Below are positions 32,959 through 56,026 of a stretch of DNA of 64,000 nt, in pieces. Origin of the DNA: Escherichia phage ECCR664. The notes below the pieces were generated by a model. The model was given only the letters and a program-made list of their open reading frames with translations. It made no database searches and was not told where the DNA came from. The translations under genes were made by a program, and so were the position numbers. Within the stretch, counting starts at the first letter, position 1. Each line of letters begins with the position of its first letter. The stretch lies in sequence record OL631257.1; one strand, given 5' to 3'.

Positions 32959-33530
32959 TTAATTAATTAACCAAGCATTGATAAGCAAACCATATTGCGA
33001 ATAAAATTCTGGACCAAAACGAAAAATCATATCATTTATAGTATCCATAATGTAGTTCAATTTAATCATGTTTCCACACCCCATCGGTATTTGACCAAAG
33101 TCGCTGATTATCTGATCCTCGCCACAGCTTTTTGGTCGGAAGATTTTCTCATACTTCCCATCAATAATAACATCAACATATTTAAGCATTTCTAGTTGTT
33201 TAATATCTTCAAACTTGTATCCTGTCCACAACCAAATGCTTTTATTGGGATAAAGATTTTTGCTGTTTGAACAATGCAATGAATAACATCTCGGTTGTCA
33301 GGATAGAGAGGGTCTCCTCCGGTTATAGTCAATCCTTCTATATAATCATTATTCAAGCATTCAATTAATTGTTCTAGTGTTTCACCGGTGAATGGAATAC
33401 CATTTCTAGCGTTCCATGTTGATTTATTATAACACCCTTCGCATTTATGCAAACAACCTGTAACGAAAAGAACGACCCTGCAACCAGGGCCATTCACAAA
33501 ATCGCAAGGATAAAATCTATCATAATTCAT
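32959..33530 (-). CDS. nrdG: anaerobic ribonucleotide reductase activase NrdG (radical SAM); apparent frameshift
   Basis: MNYDR.YPCDFVNGPGCRVVLFVTGCLHKCEGCYN.STWNARNG ... TGGDPLYP matches T4 NrdG as recalled; second fragment carries WLWTGYKFEDIKQLEMLKYVDVIIDGKYEK. Confidence 0.85.
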
Positions 33531-35343
33531 TGGTGTTTAACCCTATGCATGATTTCTTTATTTTTACCGAGATTAAATCCGCGTTCGTTCGGATTTCCAA
33601 GATAACCGCATGTTCTTCTTATAGTGTTCATCTTTTTAGGATCAGTTTCTCCACAAACTGAACAAACAAATCCGTTTTCAGTAGGAGTCATTTCATGAGT
33701 ACTTCCGCATGTAAAACATTTATCCACTGGCATATTAACACCAAAATAATCTAAATGTTGTGCAGCATAATCCCAGACAGCCTCAAGACCCTTTAAGTTA
33801 TTTTTCATATCAGGAAGTTCAACATAAGAAATGTGACCACCTGTCGCAATGAAATGATATGGCGCTTCACGAGAAATCTTTTCAAACGGAGTAATATTTT
33901 CTTCTACTGAAACGTGGAAACTATTAGTGTACCAGCCTTTATCGGTAACATCTTTTACGCTTCCATATTTTTCTGTATCAAGTTTACAGAAGCGATAACA
34001 AAGGTTTTCAGCAGGAGTAGAATATAAACTAAAAGCAAATCCAGTTCTTTCAGTCCACTGTTTAAGATGAGCATTCATTTTAGTTAAAATTTCTTGCCCA
34101 ATATCACGACCAACAAGAATATTCAATTCATGAATACCAATGTATCCTAAAGACACTGAACTTCTACCGTTTTTAAATAACTCAATTATATCGTCGTCAG
34201 GTTTAAGACGAACCCCGAATGCACCTTCTTGGTAAAGAATAGGAGCAACAGTCGCTTTAACTCCTTTTAAGGAACTAATTCTACACATCAAAGCTTCAAA
34301 ACATAAATCCATTCGTTCATTGAACAATTCGATAAATTTCTGTTCATTGAATTGTGTTCCAATATAAGAATCTAATGCGATACGAGGAAGATTCAGTGTT
34401 ACAACACCGAGATTATTACGTCCATCAAGAATTTCATTACCGGTTGAATCTTTCCATACGCTCAAGAAACTACGACAACCCATTGGAGAAACAGGAATAG
34501 ATGAGCCAGTGATAGCTTTATTGTTCTTAGCTGAAATAATATCAGGATACATTCTTTTGCTTGCACACTCTAGAGCGAGTTGCTTAATATCATAGTTCGG
34601 ATCATCTTTATAAAGATTAACACCTTCTTCAACAAACATAACAAGTTTAGGAAAAATAGGAGTTATCCCATCACGTCCAAGACCTTTAATGCGGTTTTTA
34701 AGAATTGCCTTCTGAATCATTCGTTCAGTCCAATCAGTTCCTGTTCCAAATGTTATAGTAACAAAAGGAGTTTGTCCGTTTGAACTAAAAAGAGTATTTA
34801 CTTCATATTCATAAGCTTGGAATGCATCGTATACGTCTTTTTCTGTTTTAGATTGAGCATAATTCAACGCATCAGCGATTTGCCATTTTCTGCATCTTCA
34901 ACATGTTTAGCGTATGTACGTTTAACATAAGGAGAAAGAACTTTATCGACATTTGCAAATGTAGTTCCGCCATACTGATGTGAAGCAACTTGTGCAGTAA
35001 TTTGTGCCATAATTGCAGTAGCAACACCAATCGATTTAGGCGTTTCGATTTGAGCATTGCCTAATTTAAATCCATTCTCAAGCATCCCCTTTAAATCGAC
35101 TAAACAGCAATTAGTAAACGGAAGAGCAGGAGAATAATCAATATCATGCATGTGGATAATTCCACTTTCATGCGCATTCATAATAAAAGACGGGACCATA
35201 TTTTTGGCAATGTGCTTAGACACAATACCAGCCATAAGGTCCCGTTGAGTTGGAAAAACACGAGAATCTTTATTAGCATTCTCGTTCAAAAGATCTTTAT
35301 TAGTTTTATAAATTAATCCTTCAATTTCTTTTTCAATTTTCAT
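33527..35343 (-). CDS. nrdD: anaerobic ribonucleoside-triphosphate reductase NrdD; one apparent frameshift, no intron
   Basis: Fragments 34864..35343 and 33527..34867 total about 605 aa; C-terminal Cys cluster and glycyl-radical region RRTCGYLG; frame junction near 34865. Confidence 0.9.
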
Positions 35344-35344
35344 T

Positions 35345-35812
35345 TTAAACTCTTTCTAAGCTGCTTTTGAATGAAGCTATTAATTGTGTTTTAGTATCAG
35401 ATTCATTATATTCAAATCCTCTTTGAAGCATCTCAGTCATCATTTCCTCTTTACCTAGTCTTGAGAACTCTTTAGTTTTGTCTGGAACAAAATTAGGATG
35501 GATATTATTATCAGAATAATCTTGTTTCAAATAAGCAAGAAGAGCTTCAAGCCATTCGAGGTAATCAACGTTTTGACCTTTAAGACCAGAACGGTTGAAC
35601 TTATGCTTCATTTGACCTTCTGCTGCATTGCACAGGTTACATAGTAAACCACGAACCTTACCAGCTTTTGGCCCGTTTAATTCATGGTCGTGGTCAAGAT
35701 GGTTACCTTGAACATCAGGGTCTAATTCACGGTGGCAAATAGGACACTTACCGTTCTGTGCATCATAAAATTTTTGTTTTTCTTCTTTATATTTTGCGCC
35801 TGATAATAACAT
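35345..35812 (-). CDS. 49: endonuclease VII (Holliday-junction resolvase), gene 49
   Basis: 155 aa; KEEKQKFYDAQNGKC.IC.REL.PDVQ.NHLDHDHELNGPKAGKVRGLLCNLCNAAEGQMKHKFNRSGLKGQ.VDYLEWLE matches T4 gp49 as recalled. Confidence 0.9.
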   Translation of the reverse strand: MLLSGAKYKEEKQKFYDAQNGKCPICHRELDPDVQGNHLDHDHELNGPKAGKVRGLLCNLCNAAEGQMKHKFNRSGLKGQNVDYLEWLEALLAYLKQDYSDNNIHPNFVPDKTKEFSRLGKEEMMTEMLQRGFEYNESDTKTQLIASFKSSLERV

Positions 35813-36039: not shown

Positions 36040-36453
36040 TTAACTTAAACGTCTTTCTAAATATTCAATGTATTCCGCTGCGGCTTGCATCAGATTACCT
36101 TCATAACCGTCATTATTTTCTTGGGCGGCTAATTTAGCTAAAGCATAAGAAATACGTTCACCTTCGAATTTGCCAAGTTCACTGTCACAAACTACTTGGT
36201 CAATTTCTTCGAGTTCATCTATTGAATGGGATTCCCAGAAGCACCAAAGACAAGTATCACGGTCATAGATGCAAAGTTTCTCACCTGTGTTCAACATCAC
36301 TTCGATAATGCCATGGTCGCCATAACCATCTTCGGTAGTAGTACCAATTACCTTGATGATTGTTCCTTTCTTTAATTCAGGAAACTTGACTTGTAGTTCT
36401 TCATCTTCTTTAACAATCTTGAACCATTTACCGCGAGTTTCAGAAATATTCAT
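36040..36453 (-). CDS. hypothetical protein
   Basis: ORF 36040..36570; likely start MNISETRGKWFKIVKED at 36453; Cys-containing, acidic C-terminus. Confidence 0.35.
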   Translation of the reverse strand: MNISETRGKWFKIVKEDEELQVKFPELKKGTIIKVIGTTTEDGYGDHGIIEVMLNTGEKLCIYDRDTCLWCFWESHSIDELEEIDQVVCDSELGKFEGERISYALAKLAAQENNDGYEGNLMQAAAEYIEYLERRLS

Positions 36454-36454
36454 A

Positions 36455-36592
36455 TCAATATTCTCTATAAAAGTTACGATGAGAACGTTTAGCTTTGCGA
36501 AGCTGACGTTTAGTAGGACGAACTGTAAATGGTTGCCCAGAGAAAAATTCGGATCGGTTTTAATAAGCAAATACCAATCGTGCTTGCCATTT
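36455..36592 (-). CDS. small protein with basic VRPTK tail (family member 3), apparent frameshift
   Basis: Not in ORF track; MASTIGICLLKPIRI ... FSGQPFTVRPTKRQLRKAKRSHRNFYREY. Confidence 0.3.
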
Positions 36593-45915: not shown

Positions 45916-46151
45916 TACCGATTGTGTTTTAAATGTTGATAAAGTTCTTCAACTTGTTTAGGGTCCAAAACAATTAAGTCATTTTCTTGACGAAGATAAA
46001 TCCATCCCTTATCCCCAGGGCCATTTTTACAAAACATCACCGTCGTCATATCGTCATCTTCAGCGCTTTCAGGTAAAAGTTCAAGTACACCGTCTTCAGA
46101 TTTTCCAGTATAATCGTAAAGCATAATATCCTCACATAATCTCGTTAACAT
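45915..46151 (-). CDS. hypothetical acidic protein (78 aa)
   Basis: ORF only. Confidence 0.3.
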   Translation of the reverse strand: MLTRLCEDIMLYDYTGKSEDGVLELLPESAEDDDMTTVMFCKNGPGDKGWIYLRQENDLIVLDPKQVEELYQHLKHNR

Positions 46152-46311
46152 ACATTTGCAATTCGGTGTGCGTATCAGCCATCTTTTTCATAGCTCTGTT
46201 AATGTCGATGTCTCCATCTTCGCAACCATGAGCATTTTCCCAATCAGATACCGCATTAGCGTACTCTTCAATCAAAAACATTAACTTAGAAATTTTTTCT
46301 TTACGTGTCAT
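46132..46311 (-). CDS. hypothetical protein (about 59 aa)
   Basis: ORF 46132..46389; likely start MTRKEKISKL at 46311 below the promoter. Confidence 0.3.
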   Translation of the reverse strand: MTRKEKISKLMFLIEEYANAVSDWENAHGCEDGDIDINRAMKKMADTHTELQMYVNEIM

Positions 46312-46337
46312 AATGTTCTCCTCTAGTAAGTAAAGAC

Positions 46338-46367
46338 TACTATAACACAACCTGAGGAAAAGTAAAC
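46338..46367 (-). promoter_or_regulatory. T4 early-type promoter
   Basis: Minus strand GTTTAC - 17 nt - TTATAGT, immediately after the rI terminator. Confidence 0.5.
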
Positions 46368-46378
46368 TGCTAAATGCC

Positions 46379-46404
46379 AAAAGCCCCAACCTTTCGGAAG
46401 GGGC
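46379..46404 (-). terminator. rho-independent terminator downstream of rI
   Basis: Hairpin GCCCC..CCTTTCGGAAGG..GGGGC at 46383..46404 followed on the minus strand by UUUU; identical element at 62340..62367. Confidence 0.6.
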
Positions 46405-46411
46405 TATTAAA

Positions 46412-46713
46412 TTAGATAGATGTAGGCTCTAATTTTATTTTCATGAACTCAGCAAATTGTCTGGCGGTTTTTATGCCTTGTTCATGACATTCAAATGCAT
46501 CATCACAGGGACTATTTTTGTAATGCTTTGCCATATACTTATAGAATTTTTCAGAATTCTCGACATTTTGAATTTCAAACAAAGTATATACGTTTTTAAT
46601 CCCTGATTCCATAAAGTTATCAAAATATGGGTCGATATGTGCAGTACCAACGATAGGAGTTGTTGCTGCAAAAACCCCAGCATCGCTATGACAGCTATCG
46701 CTCTTAAGGCCAT
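46412..46713 (-). CDS. rI: lysis-inhibition regulator RI (membrane-anchored periplasmic); apparent frameshift
   Basis: N-terminal frame MALRAIAVIAMLG and C-terminal frame ...KFYKYMAKHYKNSPCDDAFECHEQG...EFMKIKLE match T4 RI as recalled. Confidence 0.7.
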
Positions 46714-46725
46714 ATAGGCCTCCTG

Positions 46726-46938
46726 TTAATTTTGGCCAGTATTTATTTTTCGCCTTTGGACGGCCTTAACATCTGTGAGGTATTTTTCCAGCTTGCGCTT
46801 GCGTGTATAATCAGCTTTAGAACCAGTTTGACGGATATCCTCATTTAAATGAGAAATAGAATGTCCTAATTCTCTTCGGATTTCATCCAATTGGGTTACA
46901 GTAAGATTACGAAGTTGTCTTTCGTTTAATTGCTGCAT
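46726..46938 (-). CDS. hypothetical protein (rI.1 position)
   Basis: 70 aa ORF with a late-promoter motif upstream. Confidence 0.35.
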
Positions 46939-46962
46939 ATATACCTCTTGGTTAGATATTAG

Positions 46963-46970
46963 TATTTATA
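46963..46970 (-). promoter_or_regulatory. T4-type late promoter (TATAAATA)
   Basis: Plus tatttata about 25 nt upstream of the ATG at 46938; overlaps the tk stop. Confidence 0.5.
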
Positions 46971-47545
46971 ACAACCCTGTCAAATCATTCCAATGCTTCC
47001 GGCATAATGACACGTATCTATCAGTATCACCAATTTCAATTTGACTGCCATCTGTAATTGGAAGTCCGTCTTCCGTGACTCTAGCTACCATTGTGGCCTT
47101 TTACCACAATGACAGACACCTTTAAGTTCAACAAGCTTATCGGCAATAGCCATTAATGCTTGAGAACCTTCAAATAGATTACCTTTAAAATCTGTTCGTA
47201 GTCCATATGCCATTACTGGCACATTGTATACGTCAACAATACGACTAAGTTGATACACCTTTTCAGTAGTTAAGAACTGAGCTTCGTCAACAAATACACA
47301 ATGAATATCCTTTGTGCTGCAGCCCATTTATAGAATTCAAAGATGTCCATGTCTTTTGTAATTATATTGGCATCCTGACGAATACCAATACGAGAGACTA
47401 TTTCACCTTTTGAATCACGAGTATCAATAGCCGGTTTAAGAACTAATACACCCATGCCACGTTCTTTATAGTTATGTGCGGCAGTAAGTAATGAAGCAGA
47501 CTTACCAGCATTCATAGCGGCATATGTAAAAATTAAACTAGCCAT
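46966..47545 (-). CDS. tk: thymidine kinase; two apparent frameshifts
   Basis: Walker [13 protein letters not shown]; [13 protein letters not shown]; CHCGK ... Zn ribbon. One junction verified as a one-base loss in an A-run (caaaggat versus expected caaaaggat). Confidence 0.85.
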
Positions 47546-47554
47546 AAGAGTCCC

Positions 47555-47737
47555 TTATAGTGAATTCACGTAGTCAATGAGTTCTTGTTCTTTCCTGTCA
47601 AATGATTCCATCAATGCGTGATATTCTTCGTCCGTCAAAGGAGCATATTCATCGTACGCATTGGTGGCTGCTTGTTCATCCAATAGGTCATGGATAAGTT
47701 CGAACAGTTTAGCTTTCTCTTCTTTAGTCAATTTCAT
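47555..47737 (-). CDS. hypothetical acidic protein (60 aa)
   Basis: ORF only. Confidence 0.3.
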   Translation of the reverse strand: MKLTKEEKAKLFELIHDLLDEQAATNAYDEYAPLTDEEYHALMESFDRKEQELIDYVNSL

Positions 47738-47946
47738 TTAGGTTCACCTTCTTTAACGAAATCTGGGTAAGGGTAAAATCCTGAGTAAAACCCTTCACCT
47801 TTATGATTACTACAACCTTTGTTCGAACAGTAACACCAATAATCAAAATCACAAGCCATTTCGTCATTGCATAAAGCAAAAACTACAGGCCATTCGCATT
47901 TTTCGCATTTAGCGCCTGTAAGAATTTTTGTTTGGCTCATAACCAT
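47734..47946 (-). CDS. Cys-rich small protein (putative Zn-binding)
   Basis: 70 aa; CEKCEW ... CNDEMACDFDYWCYCSNKGC. Confidence 0.35.
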   Translation of the reverse strand: MVMSQTKILTGAKCEKCEWPVVFALCNDEMACDFDYWCYCSNKGCSNHKGEGFYSGFYPYPDFVKEGEPK

Positions 47947-48164
47947 GTCACCTTTAAGCAGTATTCTTCTACATGCTGTTTACGACCTTTCTTATCAATA
48001 AAGGTATATTCAACGAATGTTCCAATGTAGTCTTTATCTACATCATGTGGACTATTAATTGGACATTTAGTACGACAAATGCGTTCCCATTGACGAATAA
48101 TTACTGCCTTATTCTTTGGGTCGTATGGATGTGGATAATGTATATTCATAATAATGGTTCCCAA
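47937..48164 (-). CDS. hypothetical protein (75 aa)
   Basis: ORF only. Confidence 0.3.
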   Translation of the reverse strand: MGTIIMNIHYPHPYDPKNKAVIIRQWERICRTKCPINSPHDVDKDYIGTFVEYTFIDKKGRKQHVEEYCLKVTWL

Positions 48165-48643
48165 TCAACAATCACAATTTCTAGTTTAGTGGAATACGTA
48201 TCTAAAATCTCTTCGATGATATCCCAGTTTCCGCCACCGATACCAGCACCAATTCTTGGCATATAAATTAAAGGCTTTGTTATCTTATTCTTTCCGAATT
48301 TATTTAATTCTATTATACAATTCATTAAAGCAGAGTACTCAAAATTAGGTCCAGGCTCAAACTGTGTATAAAGATTAAAGCAATAAGCTTTATGGGTCTT
48401 AAAATATTTTTCATAAACCGAATAAGTCCCGAGTTTAGATTCGTCTCCGAATTCGGTTTGAAGTTTATCGGCTTCCAGAATTTTTGGATAAGCCTTTGCT
48501 AATTGACCTGCTACACCAGCGCCCATTGTATGAAAACAATTGCACCCATGAGCAATATTATTACCTTTAGAAAACAGGGCGACAATATCGCCCTTGATAT
48601 AGTTTTTAATCACTTGCTGCAAGTCCTCTAGTATAAGAGTCAA
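48146..48643 (-). CDS. macro-domain protein (ADP-ribose binding/hydrolase fold)
   Basis: 165 aa; IAHGCNCFHTMGAGVAGQLAKAYP and IGAGIGGGNWD resemble macrodomain Gly-rich loops; T4 tk.4 position. Confidence 0.5.
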   Translation of the reverse strand: MTLILEDLQQVIKNYIKGDIVALFSKGNNIAHGCNCFHTMGAGVAGQLAKAYPKILEADKLQTEFGDESKLGTYSVYEKYFKTHKAYCFNLYTQFEPGPNFEYSALMNCIIELNKFGKNKITKPLIYMPRIGAGIGGGNWDIIEEILDTYSTKLEIVIVDWEPLL

Positions 48644-48953
48644 CTAGACGGTCCACCATAGAATTGCATGCTGCCTTATCTTTAGGTTCCGCCACCGAGC
48701 ATTCTAATATTTGCCATTTTTTATAGTATCTTTTAATTAAGGTAGACGCCTTGAACCTACTAGACGCCCCATCTTTTTCTCCGTCTTTATACGCATATAA
48801 CAATTTTTGTGAAAAATCTACTTTACACTCTTGACTTTTACCACAATAATCAGACGCCGTTCTGTTTGTATACTCCGTTACATCAGTATATGTAGTATTA
48901 GCAAGAGCGTTAAATGAAACCAAGCCAACTATTAAAGCTAACATTTTGGTCAT
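48606..48953 (-). CDS. secreted protein (Vs position)
   Basis: 115 aa; signal peptide MTKMLALIVGLVSFNALA; same length as T4 Vs; residue similarity not confirmed. Confidence 0.4.
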   Translation of the reverse strand: MTKMLALIVGLVSFNALANTTYTDVTEYTNRTASDYCGKSQECKVDFSQKLLYAYKDGEKDGASSRFKASTLIKRYYKKWQILECSVAEPKDKAACNSMVDRLVDSYTRGLAASD

Positions 48954-49492
48954 TCTTTTATTTCCAGTAGTTTATTTGATTTAAGGTAATTAGCCTTTTC
49001 TAGGACTTCAGAAGCATATTTACTTCCAGCACTTGTCTTCCATCCCGCATTATATGAGGATATAGCTTTTCTTATATCCCCGTTATGTATATTTAACCAA
49101 TAAGAAAATTCGATATAAGCCCATCTGGCTGAATTAGACCGCTTAGATAGCATTTTCTTAATTTGGGCATCAGTCATATTATAACCAAGCTGGTTAATTC
49201 TTGCCCTCATTGTTGGTAGATAGTTTTGGAACATTCCATACGCATGGTGACCTTTCTTATCTTTAAGATTAATACCTGCGGATGATTCTTGCCATAGTAT
49301 TGCGGCCATTATGTATCCAAGTCCTTTCTTATGCATATTTTCATGCGTTTTAAATTTTCCGTCCTTAGAAAACTGTTCCCCAAACTGATAAGCATAATTC
49401 AAGTTATCGAGTTGGACATTACTAAAAGTATGCTCGGAGCTATGTGCTGATAACGAAAGAGCAAATAGACCAGCGAGTAGTGCTTTTCTCAT
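48950..49492 (-). CDS. periplasmic lytic-transglycosylase-like (SLT-domain) protein
   Basis: 180 aa; signal peptide; AAILWQESS ... AYGMFQ resembles the SLT catalytic E-S and GLMQ motifs; T4 vs.1 position. Confidence 0.5.
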   Translation of the reverse strand: MRKALLAGLFALSLSAHSSEHTFSNVQLDNLNYAYQFGEQFSKDGKFKTHENMHKKGLGYIMAAILWQESSAGINLKDKKGHHAYGMFQNYLPTMRARINQLGYNMTDAQIKKMLSKRSNSARWAYIEFSYWLNIHNGDIRKAISSYNAGWKTSAGSKYASEVLEKANYLKSNKLLEIKE

Positions 49493-49500
49493 GTTTACCT

Positions 49501-49957
49501 CTAGATTTTAATCACTGCTTTAGAAGCTTTTCCTGGTAGTCGTTTACTGTTAATAATAGCCATTCTGCATTGAAGAGTCTTCATTTTGAATGCTGGATTT
49601 TCGCGACAGACTGTAAGTCCTAACCAAAGATTTCCGTCAGTTATTTCTAAACGGCCTGGGCGATATTCGACACCTTCGACAAAATCTTCATCAACATCTG
49701 GACGTGCCGGCATTGATAAAAATTCTGCAACTTCTTTAACATGATTTTTACTTTATGAAATAATTCAAAACGTAATTCTCATCTATTTCTCTCTGGATGG
49801 CACGATCTAAGAGATGTTGAGAATACTTGATATGAAAGCCTGGTAGTCCAAGAGACTTTGCAGCATCTTTTATACCGGCATTTATTTTGCGGAACTCCGT
49901 TTCAAAGATTCGACGGAGTTTATTACGGCGGATAAAAACGTCAGAATTGATAGTCAT
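49501..49957 (-). CDS. regB: endoribonuclease RegB; apparent frameshift
   Basis: N fragment MTIN..VFIRRNKLRR.FE.EFR.IN ... KYSQHLLDRAIQREIDE and C fragment RPD.DEDF.GVEYRPGRLEITDGNLWLG.TVC ... CRMAIINS.RLPGKASKAVIK match T4 RegB as recalled. Confidence 0.8.
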
Positions 49958-49986
49958 TTTTGATTTCTCCTCTAGTTGACAGGTCT

Positions 49987-50015
49987 ATAGTAACACATCT
50001 AGAGGAGAAGTAAAC
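49987..50015 (-). promoter_or_regulatory. T4 early-type promoter upstream of regB
   Basis: Minus strand GTTTAC - 17 nt - TACTAT. Confidence 0.5.
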
Positions 50016-50019
50016 TACT

Positions 50020-50235
50020 TTATTGATAAAATGGAGTTAAAGCCCAAGATTCTTTAGATACCATATTGGCGAAATGCCTCATCTCTTCGATTTGGCGACG
50101 ACGCTGGTCAGCATAGTCTTCTTCACCTTCTTCCTTACAATCTTCAAGGTCTTCTTCAAGATACTTTAAGTATTCACTACAAATTTTGTTGACCTTTTCT
50201 TGAAAGTCCAATAACCCGGTAATAGTAGAAGCCAT
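50020..50235 (-). CDS. hypothetical acidic protein (71 aa)
   Basis: ORF only. Confidence 0.3.
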   Translation of the reverse strand: MASTITGLLDFQEKVNKICSEYLKYLEEDLEDCKEEGEEDYADQRRRQIEEMRHFANMVSKESWALTPFYQ

Positions 50236-50669
50236 TAGTATTTTTCCTCAGGTCGAAATACTGCACGACATGCCCACATACTGGCTTCTTTTAGATGTTG
50301 CTTAGCATACTTAAGAGCCTGCACTGCATCCATATCTTCTTTGGTTTGTTGCTCTGATTCATTTTCTTTCAAGATATATGCTTCTTCAATCAGAGCATCA
50401 AACATCAATCCAAGACGGACTTCGGCGTCTTTAATAGCGTTCACTTTACTGATTTTATCATCGGTATGCGGCTTGTAGCCTTTGATGTCTTCAATCGACA
50501 TAAGGAATTTCCTCATCGGTGGCAAGGTCATATTCGACCAATTGGATAGGCTCATTAATACCATATCCACGTACAGTGATATCGGTTGACGGATATTTTC
50601 CAGTAATATCACCCGTTCTAAATGCTTCAATGAATGATTGCTCGCCTGAGCAACTAAACCAGGCGGCAA
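50235..50669 (-). CDS. hypothetical protein (144 aa)
   Basis: ORF; start uncertain. Confidence 0.3.
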   Translation of the reverse strand: MPPGLVAQASNHSLKHLERVILLENIRQPISLYVDMVLMSLSNWSNMTLPPMRKFLMSIEDIKGYKPHTDDKISKVNAIKDAEVRLGLMFDALIEEAYILKENESEQQTKEDMDAVQALKYAKQHLKEASMWACRAVFRPEEKY

Positions 50670-50715
50670 AACATTTTAAAACATCTTCAGACCCTTCTAT
50701 AATCAATTTAGCCAT
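50491..50715 (-). CDS. hypothetical protein (74 aa)
   Basis: ORF overlapping 50235..50669 in another frame; one of the two may be spurious or they are joined by an indel. Confidence 0.25.
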   Translation of the reverse strand: MAKLIIEGSEDVLKCFAAWFSCSGEQSFIEAFRTGDITGKYPSTDITVRGYGINEPIQLVEYDLATDEEIPYVD

Positions 50716-51077
50716 TATAAACTCTCAGTAAAGGTACGAGCGATAACGTCGCGCTGCTGTTCCGGAGTCAGAGAGTTAAAGCGAACTGCATAACCGGATA
50801 CACGAATGGTCAGCTGTGGATATTTTTCCGGATGCTTAACTGCATCTTCCAGAGTTTCACGACGCAGAACGTTAACGTTCAGGTGCTGACCACCTTCAAT
50901 TTTAACTTTAGGTTGATGTTCAATTTCAATTTCACGAGCATTCAAACCGTAGAAAATTTCTGGGTCTACAATAGCGTCTTCTTTAAAAGTCTTAGAGACA
51001 ATAATCCGGGCTTGAGTACCGTCTTCAAAATAAATAGTGCCTTTATGTTCACCTTCAAGAATTTGATATGCTTTCAT
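50715..51077 (-). CDS. grcA: autonomous glycyl-radical cofactor (GrcA/YfiD-like)
   Basis: 120 aa; C-terminal [59 protein letters not shown] contains the RVSGY glycyl-radical motif and matches E. coli GrcA as recalled; N-terminal half diverged. Confidence 0.8.
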
Positions 51078-51100
51078 ATAACCTCAATTAGAAAATAAAT

Positions 51101-51925
51101 TTATCCAAGATTTTCTTTAATCAAAAATGGGTCGGAATTAAACGCCATTAAACTTTGAGTGATTAATCCCTTAAATGGCCCATCAATAAATTCCATTTTG
51201 AAATGCGGAATACTAGTCATCAACCGTGCATTAGGAGCAGTACAAAGAACCTGCTGACCTGCGAACGGACCTTTAGTCAAACGATATCGTTTAGGTTTAA
51301 AATGGTAGATCTCGTAATTTTCTACAAGAGCCCTTTTATTGCATACTGGACTGTTATAACAATACTCAAAAACTTCAATAGTGGTCATCATTGCATTCCA
51401 ATCACAAAAATTGAGGACGAGCAGTACCGCCTATGCAATATTTGCTTTTGCAGCAGTGCTGTACTGATTTAATATGGACATTGTAAATCTTATCCATATC
51501 AGGAGCTTTAATAGGCTCGTCAATTATGTATAGAATACGAGAAAGCGTTAATCCACGGAATTTAGAACCTTCATTGCCAATAAAACTACGGACAGAATCA
51601 GTAAATAAACGGAATCGAATATCATCGCTAGAATAACGAGAAAATTCTTTTTAATGTTGCCAGCAGAAATTTTAGCATAAGCTGAAGTATTAGAAAGAAC
51701 AATAACTGTTCCATCGTCGTGCAGCCAATTAGCAGCAAAATTAGTTACTGCAGTGGATTTACCTGATTGTCTGCCACCGTCTAAACGAAGTGTACAGTAC
51801 TGCTTGAGTATGTCTTCAAATGGTGGGACATAACCATTCTTACAAATTTCTTCTACTCTAGCATCAGAATGGTGTGTAAAAGCATTCATCAGGGATAGAT
51901 AAGGTCCAGTTAAAAATGTTTTCAT
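51101..51925 (-). CDS. P-loop NTPase-like protein; apparent frameshift(s)
   Basis: ORF 51548..51973 (MKTFLTGPY ... LDGGRQSGKSTAVTNFA) plus ORF 51101..51391; junction not resolved. Confidence 0.35.
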
Positions 51926-52165
51926 TTTGTTCTCTCTAAGTTTGGGCCATTCCATGGCACATGAATTGTCCATTTCTGTATTTACCCATTACCGCACTTG
52001 GGCTCGACCTTATTACAGGTTGGCGGGAATCCCTCATAGAATCATGAGGTCCAGCTTGTTCCCATGTTATTTGAATGTAAATATTTTTGCCTTAATACTT
52101 ATACCAGTGTGGCTTCATTAAAATTTTTTCATCGAGTCATTTTACCTCTCCAAGTAATTATGATT

Positions 52166-52195
52166 ATACTATCACAATTCTAGGAGAAAGTAAAC
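52166..52195 (-). promoter_or_regulatory. T4 early-type promoter with unusually long leader
   Basis: Minus strand GTTTAC - about 18 nt - TAGTAT(AAT); the next ATG with a good fit is at 51925, leaving a structured leader of about 230 nt. Confidence 0.4.
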
Positions 52196-52197
52196 TG

Positions 52198-52500
52198 TTA
52201 TTTACCTTTAATTACTTTAGCTGCTTCGATAGCCGCTTGCTGAAGGTCATCCATAGACATACCGAATTTAGAAGCAAAGTTATCAATTTTCTTTTCAACA
52301 GCATTCAAAGGCTTGGCCTGTTTACCTTCATTAGCGCCAGGAAGAGCGAGAATACGCTCTTTGTCAATATAAAGGCTTACAAGTTTCTTACGGTCTTTAT
52401 CGGACAAATCGTGAAATGAATGGGCCTTTTTATTTATAGCGGCTTCTAATTTACCTGCACTCACTCGCGCTTCAGTAATAAATTCTTGATATGTTTTCAT
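52198..52500 (-). CDS. internal protein (capsid-targeted; IPII/IPIII-like)
   Basis: 100 aa; N-terminal capsid targeting sequence MKTYQEFITEAR, as in T4 internal proteins (MKTYQEFIAEA). Confidence 0.55.
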   Translation of the reverse strand: MKTYQEFITEARVSAGKLEAAINKKAHSFHDLSDKDRKKLVSLYIDKERILALPGANEGKQAKPLNAVEKKIDNFASKFGMSMDDLQQAAIEAAKVIKGK

Positions 52501-52587
52501 TTTTGTTTCCTTGTTTGTTTTGATAGAGTAATTATACCATATTAATACTTAAGCGTAAACTGTTTAAGCTTTACCATCGCAACCTTT

Positions 52588-53004
52588 TTCCTTAGTAAAT
52601 TGATTTACCATAGTATTTGTACCAAGTAGGACGTTGAGCAATTTTTTCATCTAAACGAGCTTGACTTATCGCAATGGACGCTTCGGTCGGGACATAATTA
52701 TTACGAAATTCGGCAGGGATGTCGGAAATATCTTGGACAGTCGTGTCCTTGATTTTGAAACCACGTTTCAAGCATTCAGCGATTAGCTCGATTTGACGTA
52801 AACGTAAAAATTCGAGTTTGTCGTAAAGAATGTTACATGACCTGTGCCTAAGATAAATGTCGGGGAGATTTTAAAATCCTTTACACGTTTACCGTTTTGA
52901 ACATGTTTACGGACTGCACCAAATATGCGTGGTAATTCACGATACTCAGCCATAAGATGTTGGTCGGTCAGTTCAGAAACAAGTGTTAAATTGATACGAG
53001 TCAT
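52588..53004 (-). CDS. denV: endonuclease V (pyrimidine-dimer DNA glycosylase) DenV; apparent frameshift
   Basis: [55 protein letters not shown] matches T4 DenV as recalled; frame lost after about 70 aa. Confidence 0.85.
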
Positions 53005-53031
53005 AATTTCCTCCAAGTAGTTGATGAATGT

Positions 53032-53061
53032 ATAGTATCAAAACCCTTGGAGGAAGTAAAC
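53032..53061 (-). promoter_or_regulatory. T4 early-type promoter upstream of denV
   Basis: Minus strand GTTTAC - 18 nt - TACTAT. Confidence 0.5.
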
Positions 53062-53062
53062 A

Positions 53063-53344
53063 CTATTTTTCTGAAGCGCCTGAAATATATTTTTCAAGAC
53101 GTTGTTTCATCAGCGAGCCGTTCTTAGCGATTTCTTCCGGTTTATCACACATACGCAACAAGGCTTCAAGCTTAACGATATCACTGGTGCGCTCAAATTT
53201 GCGAGTATCTATCTTACTAGCAAGTTCAGAAATACGTGCTAATAGACTTTCAGCTTCAACCAAAGCTGCACCTAGCTTAGTTGCAAATGTGTCAGTAGCT
53301 TCGTTAAGAATAGATTCTGATAAAAATTCACTATATGTTTTCAT
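53063..53344 (-). CDS. internal protein (capsid-targeted)
   Basis: ORF 53063..53359; internal start [10 protein letters not shown] resembles the T4 IP capsid targeting sequence. Confidence 0.5.
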
Positions 53345-53829
53345 ATATACGCTTTCCAAGTTCCTGTTTTAAATGTTGAGATTACGCGTTTCGCGCGATT
53401 AGGTGTCTGACGATACCATTTAGATTGGGCTAGATTTACTGCCGCTTCATCCCAACGTTTCTGTTGAAGCATACGAAGAGAATTAGTAAAACCGGCGACG
53501 CCTGCTACTCCCATTTGGAAGACCATATTGACCAATGCACATCGACGAACCGCGTCTAAAGAATCATACACCGGTTTAAGTTTAGCATTACCCAAGATTC
53601 CGCGAACGGCTTTATCAACATCTTCATTAAATAGCTTTTCAGCCTCATCAAGGGTAATTGTACCGTTACATTTACGGCCGACCATTCTGTCAAGTTCAGC
53701 TTTAGCTACGGCTAAAGACGGGTTCTTTGTTACCAAATGGCCTATGCCAATAGTCCAAAAGCCTTCGGTGTCTTTGTATAAAGACAGTCTAAGACCTTCG
53801 TCATTACGAAGCATTTCAAATATATTCAT
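53341..53829 (-). CDS. e: endolysin (T4 lysozyme), gene e
   Basis: [37 protein letters not shown] ... RCALINMVFQMG ... [21 protein letters not shown] matches T4 lysozyme as recalled. Confidence 0.9.
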
Positions 53830-53832
53830 AAT

Positions 53833-53854
53833 ACCTCCCACGTTTATAGGAGGT
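53833..53854 (-). promoter_or_regulatory. RBS-sequestering hairpin at the lysozyme start
   Basis: ACCTCC (53833..53838) pairs with GGAGGT (53849..53854); on the minus strand the GGAGGT Shine-Dalgarno lies 3 nt before the ATG and forms the 3' arm; loop contains TATAAACG (late-promoter-like). Confidence 0.5.
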
Positions 53855-53863
53855 ATTTATTAC

Positions 53864-54322
53864 TTATAGGAGGGTAGTGAGCACCTTATATAATGATTTG
53901 CCCATTACATATTCCCATTGAGAAGGTTTAATTAAAGCGAATGCATCAAATTCAGGAATCTGACGTCCGTCTGGGAATGTATGATAGGAATTACAAACAC
54001 TGTTTCTGAATTGCTCGTGCTCTACAGGGATGGTATATAGGAACAGATGAATATTCTTATTGTCTGAGTAATGATGTTCACCTAGGTCTTTCAGGAAGGC
54101 AGGGTCATATTGTGTAAACCCAGTTTCTTCTTCGCATTCACGAATAGCGGCTTCAATAGGAGATTCGCCAGGTTCGACACGGCCTTTAGGAATATCCCAC
54201 CGATGAGCTAAAGAACCTTTAGGACGAGAACCAGTTACACGTCCCATGAATAATTCTTTATCTTTTGTCATGAAGATAATACCGGCTGATAGTTCTTTCA
54301 CTTTATTTTTCTTACTCATCAT
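53864..54322 (-). CDS. nudE: Nudix hydrolase NudE
   Basis: 152 aa; Nudix box GRVEPGESPIEAAIRECEEETG (G-x5-E-x7-REUxEExGU). Confidence 0.75.
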   Translation of the reverse strand: MMSKKNKVKELSAGIIFMTKDKELFMGRVTGSRPKGSLAHRWDIPKGRVEPGESPIEAAIRECEEETGFTQYDPAFLKDLGEHHYSDNKNIHLFLYTIPVEHEQFRNSVCNSYHTFPDGRQIPEFDAFALIKPSQWEYVMGKSLYKVLTTLL

Positions 54323-54343
54323 CTCGGTCCCATGATTTGGCCA

Positions 54344-54562
54344 TTAATTCGGACATAAATTCTTCAATACGCGTTTCTTTAGATGGACTTTCACTATTAG
54401 AGACCGCGAGTTTGTAATCTGCAATAGGACGGAACAAATCAAGGTCCATATTAAGATCGTCTTTGATTTTTCTTCTGACACATCTTTATCATATGTGTAC
54501 AGATAACTATCACACGATTCTGATTTAATGTAAATTGCTATACTCATCTCAAATTCCTGCAT
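54344..54562 (-). CDS. hypothetical protein (72 aa)
   Basis: ORF only. Confidence 0.3.
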   Translation of the reverse strand: MQEFEMSIAIYIKSESCDSYLYTYDKDVSEEKSKTILIWTLICSVLLQITNSRSLIVKVHLKKRVLKNLCPN

Positions 54563-55035
54563 TCAGTTATAAAACGTTCAACTTCATTATTCTTGGCCTT
54601 TATCTTGTCTTTACGTTCCTGTAAACTACTTTTAACAAGATTAATAATGATGGCGGCGGTACCGCCGCCAATGATGCCACCAACAACACTTATGATACTA
54701 GATGCTAATAAGATAGCAATAATATCAACAAAACCGAAAGAACTAACCTTAGTACTAAAAAACCATACCGACGGTACAAATATAATCCATCCTGTTATCC
54801 ATTGGCACTTATTGAAAAACTTTTCAAGCTCAGCTTGAGTTGTTCGTATTACTTCATCGATAGGTTGATATCCATTAATGTATCTGTTCACGATAATACC
54901 TGCTGGCTGGTCGATTTTAAATTCTTGACAAATACGTTTCACTAAGTAGGATGGACATCCTGTCCAATCCACTGAATAGTACGAAATACCTTCATTGTCA
55001 TCGTCAATATTAGACCAATATGTTTTGTTAATCAT
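54544..55035 (-). CDS. membrane protein (163 aa)
   Basis: Two C-terminal hydrophobic segments with a Gly-rich IGGGTAAII stretch. Confidence 0.35.
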   Translation of the reverse strand: MINKTYWSNIDDDNEGISYYSVDWTGCPSYLVKRICQEFKIDQPAGIIVNRYINGYQPIDEVIRTTQAELEKFFNKCQWITGWIIFVPSVWFFSTKVSSFGFVDIIAILLASSIISVVGGIIGGGTAAIIINLVKSSLQERKDKIKAKNNEVERFITECRNLR

Positions 55036-55720
55036 TACCAGCCTTCCATAGGGAATTCCAGATAAACTTGGGCATTGACACGAATTTCATTGGTAATCTT
55101 TTTAACTCGGTCTGTATTACGAGATACACGTCCGAACCAACGCCATCCATTACTAATTGCACGAGAACCAGTGTGCCATGTTTGCCAATCGAACTGAAGA
55201 AGAGTACGGTCTGGAGCTTCCCATTTCTCTAGTTCACCTTTTTCAATTTTTCGAGGACTTCTTTGTGCCATTGGCGATAGATAAGTTCGCCATCAGGAAT
55301 CTGGCTGAACTCTGCAGTTCCTGTTGCAAAATGAGTAGGACACACATCAGCGTTAACAAGGCCAAGAATATGTTCAGACAAATAGCGAGGATTGTCATAG
55401 TCGGGTTGTCCTGCAGTAATAAAGTGTTGACCAACCGGAATATCCGGGCGTGGTACATCGTCATGGTGATAACCTGGGATAGCAGGGTACCAACCAGGCA
55501 TCAGCATGTGGACTCGTGAATCAAATACAACCTGGTCGGTGTTCCAATCATCTGGCAAGTTCATAATGAAGCTGCGAGTAATAGGACCGCCGTTATTATA
55601 AGCAAATTCTAAACTACAGTTGAAGAACATAGGCTCGTTCTTGATTTTATCATTAGAAATACCGCCGGCAAAACCACCTACTGCACGAGCTTGACTATTA
55701 AACACTTTAGAACTATTCAT
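55035..55720 (-). CDS. hypothetical protein; apparent frameshift
   Basis: ORFs 55229..55720 and 55035..55271 overlap in different frames; probably one gene of about 228 aa. Confidence 0.3.
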
Positions 55721-55754
55721 ATTATTTTCCTCGACATTCTTTAATGAAATTTTC

Positions 55755-56026
55755 TAGATTGGTAGATTCAATAGCTTTTTACGAGCTTCTGAGTGTTCTT
55801 CTTCTGACAATTTACGTTTATAATTGACCCAGACATTATGGTCGAAACCAGTCGTGGCATATAATAACAATGCTCCAACGAATAGCAAAAACGGCGATAA
55901 GAATACAAAACCAGGAACACCATCCATATCGTAAGCCTTTTGTAATACTGCAACAGAAAGAGTTACGTAAAAGGTGATGCAAGTATTGTTAAAAGACCAA
56001 TTCGGTTGGTTTCTGTTAATTTCATA
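55755..56026 (-). CDS. small membrane protein; apparent frameshift
   Basis: ATG at 56026 (MKLTETNRIGLLTILAS) downstream of a promoter; joins ORF 55768..55953. Confidence 0.3.

Follow-up and report, generated by a model that had tools for sequence, protein, structure and literature searches.

Probable gene conversion by host grcA in the glycyl-radical core of the T-even phage gene vs.6 (Y06I)

The window, that is, the whole 64,000-nt stretch of Escherichia phage ECCR664 that was analysed (OL631257.1), belongs to a T-even phage of the genus Mosigvirus. A GrcA-like gene is found on its minus strand at 50715..51077, where an ORF of 120 codons, running from ATG to TAA, is the ortholog of T4 vs.6/Y06I. 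The gene shared 98.9% nucleotide identity with an annotated gene of Mosigvirus SSE1, a Shigella phage. Its product was identical to that of T4 vs.6 (NP_049730, which RefSeq calls 'autonomous glycyl radical cofactor GrcA') at 112 of 120 residues (93%), the two proteins being of equal length, and a match to PHROG 1209, the group that includes T4 vs.6, extended over residues 1-120 (E = 5.9e-63). Gene order was the same in the window, T4 and SSE1 (denV - vs.8 - vs.7 - vs.6 - vs.5 - vs.4 - vs.3 - regB - vs.1 - vs - tk). The gene immediately upstream was a vs.7 homolog (51101..51391, minus strand; PHROG 2049), syntenic with T4 and SSE1; the gene downstream was a 74-aa vs.5 homolog (50491..50715, minus strand; PHROG 1986), whose start overlaps the GrcA stop codon and which also follows vs.6 in SSE1 and T4. 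The neighbours of vs.6 in Klebsiella phage pKp20 were those seen in the window, T4 and SSE1. Matches to the gene were obtained by megablast in 788 phage records, of which 777 had a coverage of at least 80%, while tblastn identified 1,588 phage records encoding a homolog, including T5-like, jumbo and Aeromonas phages. This is the long-known vs.6/Y06I, annotated in hundreds of T-even genomes and with a role known since 2001; the initial annotation had singled out the gene as noteworthy in itself, yet the window says nothing new on the identity of the protein.

Two further features of this part of the window should be recorded. The vs.4 homolog (50235-50669, minus strand), the true start of which is probably near 50501, contained the Acb2/Tad1 hairpin domain PF24729 (E = 3e-17), characteristic of a known family of anti-CBASS sponges. 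The 4.1-kb alignment block around the GrcA-like gene (within 46001-56000) required 17 gap openings against SSE1. Many indels of a single base are apparently present in the assembly, and short or split ORFs, such as that at 51548-51973, need to be treated with caution.

Several features place the protein in the GrcA/YfiD family (TIGR04365, IPR011140): it is encoded by a stand-alone ORF of 120 codons with separate genes on either side, it has a C-terminal Gly_radical domain with an RVSGY motif, and this domain resembles that of pyruvate formate-lyase (PFL). The Pfam domain Gly_radical (PF01228) was matched at residues 59-101 with 67.3 bits against a cut-off of 22.2 (E = 2e-18). The best family overall was NCBIfam TIGR04365 (spare_glycyl, the GrcA equivalog), which stood 50 bits ahead of the next; the score of 159.1 bits did not reach the curated cut-off of 170 (for comparison, 233.9 bits for E. 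coli GrcA), and this shortfall arises because the N-terminal half has diverged. Among solved structures, the best matches were the NMR structure of E. coli YfiD/GrcA (6owr) followed by PFL 696-759; 49 of 64 residues (77%) were identical to PflB 696-759, and the predicted fold superposed on the radical domain of PflB with an rmsd of 2.2 A over 52 columns (Foldseek). The predicted site of the glycyl radical is Gly95, within R92-V-S-G95-Y96 (codon at 50793..50795, minus strand), equivalent to YfiD Gly102 and PflB Gly734 in the alignments to 6owr and PFL 696-759.

Codons 1-60 (50898..51077, minus strand) form a phage-specific N-terminal half with a base composition typical of phage (G+C 0.333, GC3 0.20). 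Divergence of this part from the host protein had been pointed out in the initial annotation and was borne out, although the two are not unrelated: pairwise BLASTP aligned 40 residues with E. coli GrcA residues 28-67 at 35% identity (E = 3e-6), which is a weak but real similarity. The N-terminal half is therefore a distant homolog of its bacterial counterpart, and Q5, R24, K29, D34, R48 and E49 were conserved in phage and bacterial members in an alignment of 30 sequences. Among T-even phages, dN was 0.04-0.07 and dS 0.40-0.62 for this half; the resulting dN/dS of about 0.1 indicates that it is under purifying selection in phages. AlphaFold2 predicted four beta strands in residues 1-50 (50928-51077) with pLDDT of 84-89, and a structural search with the N-terminal half returned no significant match, only weak KOW-like similarities (E of 0.14 or greater).

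The biochemistry of the family is established for two members. According to the account in PMC8683613 of the work of Knappe and coworkers (Wagner et al. 2001, BBRC 285:456), PFL activase introduces the glycyl radical into both YfiD and T4 Y06I, and both proteins restore the activity of PFL that has been cleaved by oxygen; these remain the sole validated spare parts to date (PMC8683613). In YfiD, residues 1-60 are disordered in solution and are needed for binding of cleaved PFL and for efficient activation, while residues 61-127 make up a structured domain, which goes into the active site of PFL (PMC8683613). By analogy with Y06I and YfiD, the window protein would also be a PFL spare part. Host PflA would install the radical on Gly95, and the C-terminal domain would insert into host PFL in place of the oxygen-cleaved C-terminus of PflB; the N-terminal half presumably mediates recognition of cleaved PFL, as in YfiD. 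The supply of acetyl-CoA and formate (and ATP) would then continue after the phage has shut off host gene expression.

A different substrate was proposed in the initial annotation, namely the phage's own anaerobic ribonucleotide reductase, NrdD, encoded 15 kb away. The location was correct: nrdD and nrdG occupy 32959-35343 on the minus strand, with nrdD at 33527-35343, or 15.4-17.5 kb from the GrcA-like gene. Direct repair of oxygen-cleaved NrdD has in its favour that NrdD belongs to the glycyl-radical enzymes and has its gene in this window, and that authors in the field have speculated about spare parts for other glycyl-radical enzymes (PMC8683613). Yet the protein showed no detectable similarity to the NrdD of the window (E = 4.2; the NrdD motif is RRTCGYLG), while its identity reached 77% with PflB 696-759 and 100% with the structured domain of YfiD, and direct rescue was accordingly regarded as highly improbable. 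A plausible link is indirect, with formate from PFL feeding anaerobic dNTP synthesis by the phage, because formate, the product of PFL, serves as the reductant for class III reductases of the E. coli/T4 subtype (PMC4493059).

Both reductase genes are interrupted in this record. ORFs of 159 and 446 aa (34864-35343 and 33527-34867) make up nrdD, and nrdG is divided between 33192-33530 and 32959-33279. Comparison with SSE1, in which both genes are intact, located the breaks at single-A deletions in runs of A; these frameshifts are most likely homopolymer sequencing errors and not real pseudogenes. Adjoining nrdD on the minus strand were endonuclease VII (gene 49; 35345-35812) and the PinA protease inhibitor (36040-36570), which is the standard T-even layout.

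The C-terminal part of the gene was closely related to the chromosomal grcA of E. coli. A codon comparison anchored at the C-terminus (against grcA at 447-830 of L001) showed that residues 61-120, which include RVSGYAVRF, were identical to E. coli GrcA at 60 of 60 positions, so the near-identity that the initial annotation had described for the last 60 or so residues was correct. Identity extended to the nucleotide level, for which a check of synonymous sites had been proposed: over codons 61-117 (50727..50897, minus strand), which encode the glycyl-radical domain, the window matched E. coli alleles at 167-169 of 171 positions, and each of the 2-4 differences was synonymous. The figure was 168/171 for strain 1190, 167/171 for K-12 and 169/171 for the best of 5,426 complete E. 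coli genomes, all of which fell between 95 and 99% identity. Sister phages in Mosigvirus (L004) and Tequatrovirus (L006) were identical to strain 1190 throughout (171/171), and the T4 tract scored 169-170/171 against E. coli, with 169/171 against K-12. The possibility that the tract represents the allele of a laboratory host was rejected, K-12 not being the closest strain to either the window or T4. Some of the variants segregate in the host: CAG at codon 64, which the window shares with SSE1 and ZN18, is the allele of E. coli O157:H7, and 7 of the 5,426 E. coli genomes carried one of the two other variants of the window. Tequatroviruses labelled as Yersinia or Salmonella phages retained the E. 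coli-type tract.

When the 64-kb window was compared by megablast with the 5,426 E. coli genomes, a single stretch matched, at 50722-50899. The base composition of the core (G+C 0.491, GC3 0.40) was close to that of the E. coli core (0.497), compared with 0.333 for the N-terminal half and 0.371 for the window as a whole. In E. coli, grcA was present in all 5,426 genomes at a conserved ung-grcA-eamB locus.

The 5' boundary of the tract was abrupt. In 30-nt windows, identity to the host rose from 10-17/30 to 29-30/30 at codon 61, and the junction lay at this codon in both E. coli and Klebsiella phages (AAA ATT | GAA GG. in phage, CGC GT. | GAA GG. in host). At codon 61, near the start of the structured domain of YfiD, the alignment between phage and host breaks down. 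At the other end, codons 118-120 (GAG AGT TTA) and the TAA stop (50715..50726, minus strand) were phage-specific, with four synonymous differences from the host GAA AGC CTG, in addition to those within codons 61-117. The stop codon overlaps the ATG of vs.5 (TAATG) and comes after GAGAG, whose counterpart in pKp20, GAGG, is annotated as the ribosome-binding site for the gene that follows. The phage-specific 3' end would be retained because the host version would destroy both the ribosome-binding site and the overlapping start of vs.5. The position of the 3' endpoint was variable, with the host GAA at codon 118 in T4 and GAG in most others, and the phage-specific end comprised the last 3-8 codons, depending on lineage.

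Klebsiella T-even phages (Jiaodavirus, e.g., pKp20) possessed the orthologous gene in the same context. Their N-terminal half (MKAYQILEG...) was identical to that of the window at 135 of 180 nucleotides, while the core encoded the residues LLDAVEH, had a G+C content of 0.57 (pKp20) and matched E. coli at only 149-150 of 171 positions. To obtain the K. pneumoniae grcA allele, proteins were searched, contigs looked up and metagenomes scanned with a degenerate pattern. The scan with the Klebsiella-type pattern produced 25 stretches, from 24 of which the gene was recovered; 21 of the recovered stretches were bacterial contigs with one allele, encoding exactly the GRCA_KLEP7 protein of K. pneumoniae. 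A metagenomic phage contig of 165.7 kb (L173) was identical to this allele across codons 61-112 (156/156 nt), beyond which it had a phage-specific 3' end, and these Klebsiella phages matched K. pneumoniae at 164-167/171 over the core. By comparison, E. coli phages with the E. coli-type tract scored 167-171/171 against E. coli and 149-151 against K. pneumoniae, the two host cores differing at 20 of 171 sites. That the gene carries the E. coli tract in phages of E. coli and the K. pneumoniae tract in phages of Klebsiella thus requires at least two independent replacements from host to phage.

There was also variation within the Klebsiella phages. The N-terminal halves of L173 and pKp20 were identical (180/180), and their cores differed at three sites; all three pKp20 variants were found in other Klebsiella host alleles (those of the K. 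variicola type in L165, L166 and L189, and that in L105). Together with the matches to host polymorphisms and the varying 3' endpoints, these sites are suggestive of more than two events, but not conclusively so because third-position changes (transitions) can recur.

Other phage lineages were not close to a host allele in the core. RB16, RB43-like, CC31-like and KP15-like T-even lineages, which infect the same hosts, matched at 131-144/171, and T5-like phages at 122-130/171; since lineages on the same hosts reach only 131-144/171, conversion would be episodic, and neither universal nor fast. The KP15-like Klebsiella phages (L019 and L020) had the residues LLDAVEH and RB16 (L014) had EDAVKH, with DNA about 80-84% identical to any sampled host; the cores of RB16 and the KP15-like phages may have come from hosts at an earlier date and diverged afterwards. 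Seven metagenomic phage contigs (L021-L026 and L033; 32-154 kb, most of about 130-150 kb) carried a GrcA in which the N-terminal half (SIWLIE..ARCLVAK) was much nearer to bacterial GrcA. Their cores were nearest to Haemophilus grcA, though at only 82-86% (up to 147/171), and L040 and L042 were similar; the seven contigs may represent separate captures of the whole gene in phages of Pasteurellaceae. Two sets of candidates for a third case of host tracking were rejected: L031, which looked Yersinia-like (156/171), was a bacterial grcA within a provirus call, and L072-L081 were the C-termini of PflB.

The interpretation favoured here, to which a probability of roughly 0.8 was assigned, is that the gene is the vs.6/Y06I ortholog, encoding by analogy a PFL spare part, and that its core has been overwritten through gene conversion by host grcA. 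On this view, codons 1-60 are an old, AT-rich segment inherited in the phage lineage, while codons 61-117 have been overwritten by homologous recombination with the grcA of the current host. Overwriting would have occurred independently in the T-even lineages that infect E. coli and Klebsiella, and probably more than once in each. Judged from the sequences, host to phage is the sole direction consistent with the data, because the tract is found in every E. coli genome, its composition follows that of each host and the phage flanks are phage-like. Two host-to-phage events are the firm minimum for recombination inferred in this way; the minimum is no higher because Tequatrovirus and Mosigvirus may share one tract that was spread by recombination between phages. 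A stronger proposal, held with somewhat more belief than doubt, is that conversion still recurs and keeps the radical half matched to the host, at a self-reinforcing hotspot that would have no parallel elsewhere in these genomes.

Among the alternatives, the one closest to this interpretation accepts replacement by the host, but restricts it to two occasions, one from Escherichia and one from Klebsiella, followed by spread between phages and no ongoing conversion. It would draw on the free recombination of T-even phages during co-infection, on the small differences (0-5 nt) between Tequatrovirus and Mosigvirus cores, and on the persistence of the E. coli-type tract in Tequatroviruses labelled as Yersinia and Salmonella phages. 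It is at odds with the case of L173 and pKp20, where identical N-terminal halves are joined to cores whose three distinguishing sites match different Klebsiella alleles, with the coincidence of phage variants and E. coli polymorphisms, and with the different 3' endpoints (GAA in T4 and GAG in others at codon 118). A history of only two replacements was considered unlikely, while still deserving some weight.

Less can be said for a single, ancient capture of grcA by the T-even ancestor, after which selection on codon usage or on mRNA features froze the core at its synonymous sites while the N-terminal half drifted. The codons of grcA are typical of highly expressed genes, and a 5' junction at codon 61 in E. 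coli and Klebsiella phages alike would follow naturally from one event. Frozen sites, however, give no account of a K. pneumoniae-type tract with 156/156 identity existing beside an E. coli-type tract, when the hosts themselves differ at 20 of 171 positions; nor do they account for the RB16, CC31-like and KP15-like phages, which occupy the same hosts and have diverged to 131-144/171. An ancient capture was therefore thought very unlikely.

The initial annotation had offered recent recombination with a host gene or strong constraint on the radical domain as explanations of the mosaic pattern. The former was upheld by the identity at synonymous sites, while constraint proved insufficient by itself. 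Constraint at the protein level is real, inasmuch as the C-terminal 60 residues are near-invariant in Enterobacterales and in many phages (44 invariant columns among the 30 aligned sequences). Nonetheless, bacteria with the same 60 residues were only 142-158/171 identical to E. coli in nucleotide sequence (Citrobacter amalonaticus 158, Serratia 150 and Mangrovibacter 144, with 60/60 residues identical); hence, sequences encoding the same residues differ at 13-29 of 171 positions, as against 2-4 for the window. RB16 (HM134276), itself an E. coli phage, has core residues identical to E. coli and yet matches at only 144/171 nt, so that codon adaptation to E. coli is likewise excluded as the cause. 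When Mosigvirus was compared with Tequatrovirus, divergence at synonymous sites was 0.40-0.62 in the N-terminal half (11-14 changes at about 34 sites), as against 0-0.12 in the core (0-5 changes at about 43 sites), and this contrast was significant across pairs (Fisher's exact test, p = 0.003 to 5e-6). The core is thus 5-10 times less divergent at synonymous sites than the other half of the same gene; since the match with the host extends to such sites, constraint on the radical domain alone, without recent exchange, cannot explain it and was judged extremely unlikely.

Finally, transfer from phage to host, contamination by host reads or a chimeric assembly can be dismissed, for nothing specific speaks for contamination or chimerism beyond the homopolymer-deletion errors that the window assembly does hold, while every one of the 5,426 E. 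coli genomes has the tract at ung-grcA-eamB, its G+C and codon usage are of host type, and the gene recurs across 788 independent phage records; in all the T-even genes of E. coli and Klebsiella phages that were examined, the tract keeps the reading frame and is joined to phage-specific ends.

The new element is the nucleotide-level tracking of the host by the vs.6 core, given that the gene and its biochemical role were already known; it is of moderate interest for phage evolution. A literature search found no earlier account of nucleotide-level identity or of host-phage recombination at vs.6, although an earlier mention is possible. Virulent T-even phages degrade the DNA of their host, and exchange with the chromosome is not usually expected of them. 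Nevertheless, in phages of two host genera, one domain-coding stretch of about 170 nt can hardly be told apart from the grcA allele of the genus that the phage now infects. Should conversion still be taking place, the locus would offer a simple assay for rates of host-to-phage recombination that could be measured in the laboratory, a marker that may reveal which hosts the phage isolates used in therapy have recently had, and a clean example of an auxiliary metabolic gene that is kept compatible with PflA and PflB.

Among known systems, T4 Y06I is the nearest to the window gene, sharing its length, its position between vs.7 and vs.5 and its E. coli-type tract. Seven of the eight substitutions between the two proteins fall in codons 10-57, i.e., in the N-terminal half, and the eighth is R73H in the T4 core; synonymous divergence in the N-terminal half was approximately 0.46, as expected for a comparison of Mosigvirus with Tequatrovirus, and there is no difference in kind. 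E. coli YfiD (P68066; 6OWR) has the same layout of N-terminal half and radical domain, and its residues 68-127 correspond exactly to residues 61-120 of the window protein; the phage N-terminal half, however, is seven residues shorter, 35% identical and predicted to form a small beta sheet, whereas that of YfiD is disordered. The radical domain of PflB (1H16, 2PFL) is the piece that the spare part replaces, but it belongs to an 85-kDa enzyme, while the phage protein is a stand-alone product of 14 kDa.

Where evolutionary dynamics are concerned, the comparison is with the photosynthesis genes of cyanophages, such as psbA, in which intragenic recombination between host and phage has created mosaic genes with host-tracking tracts. 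In both systems, the phage copy of a host metabolic gene trades segments with host alleles, or would do so in the case of vs.6; the latter differs in that a single domain-coding tract of about 170 nt is affected, within a very small gene of virulent, enterobacterial T-even phages, and with a sharp 5' junction at the domain boundary.
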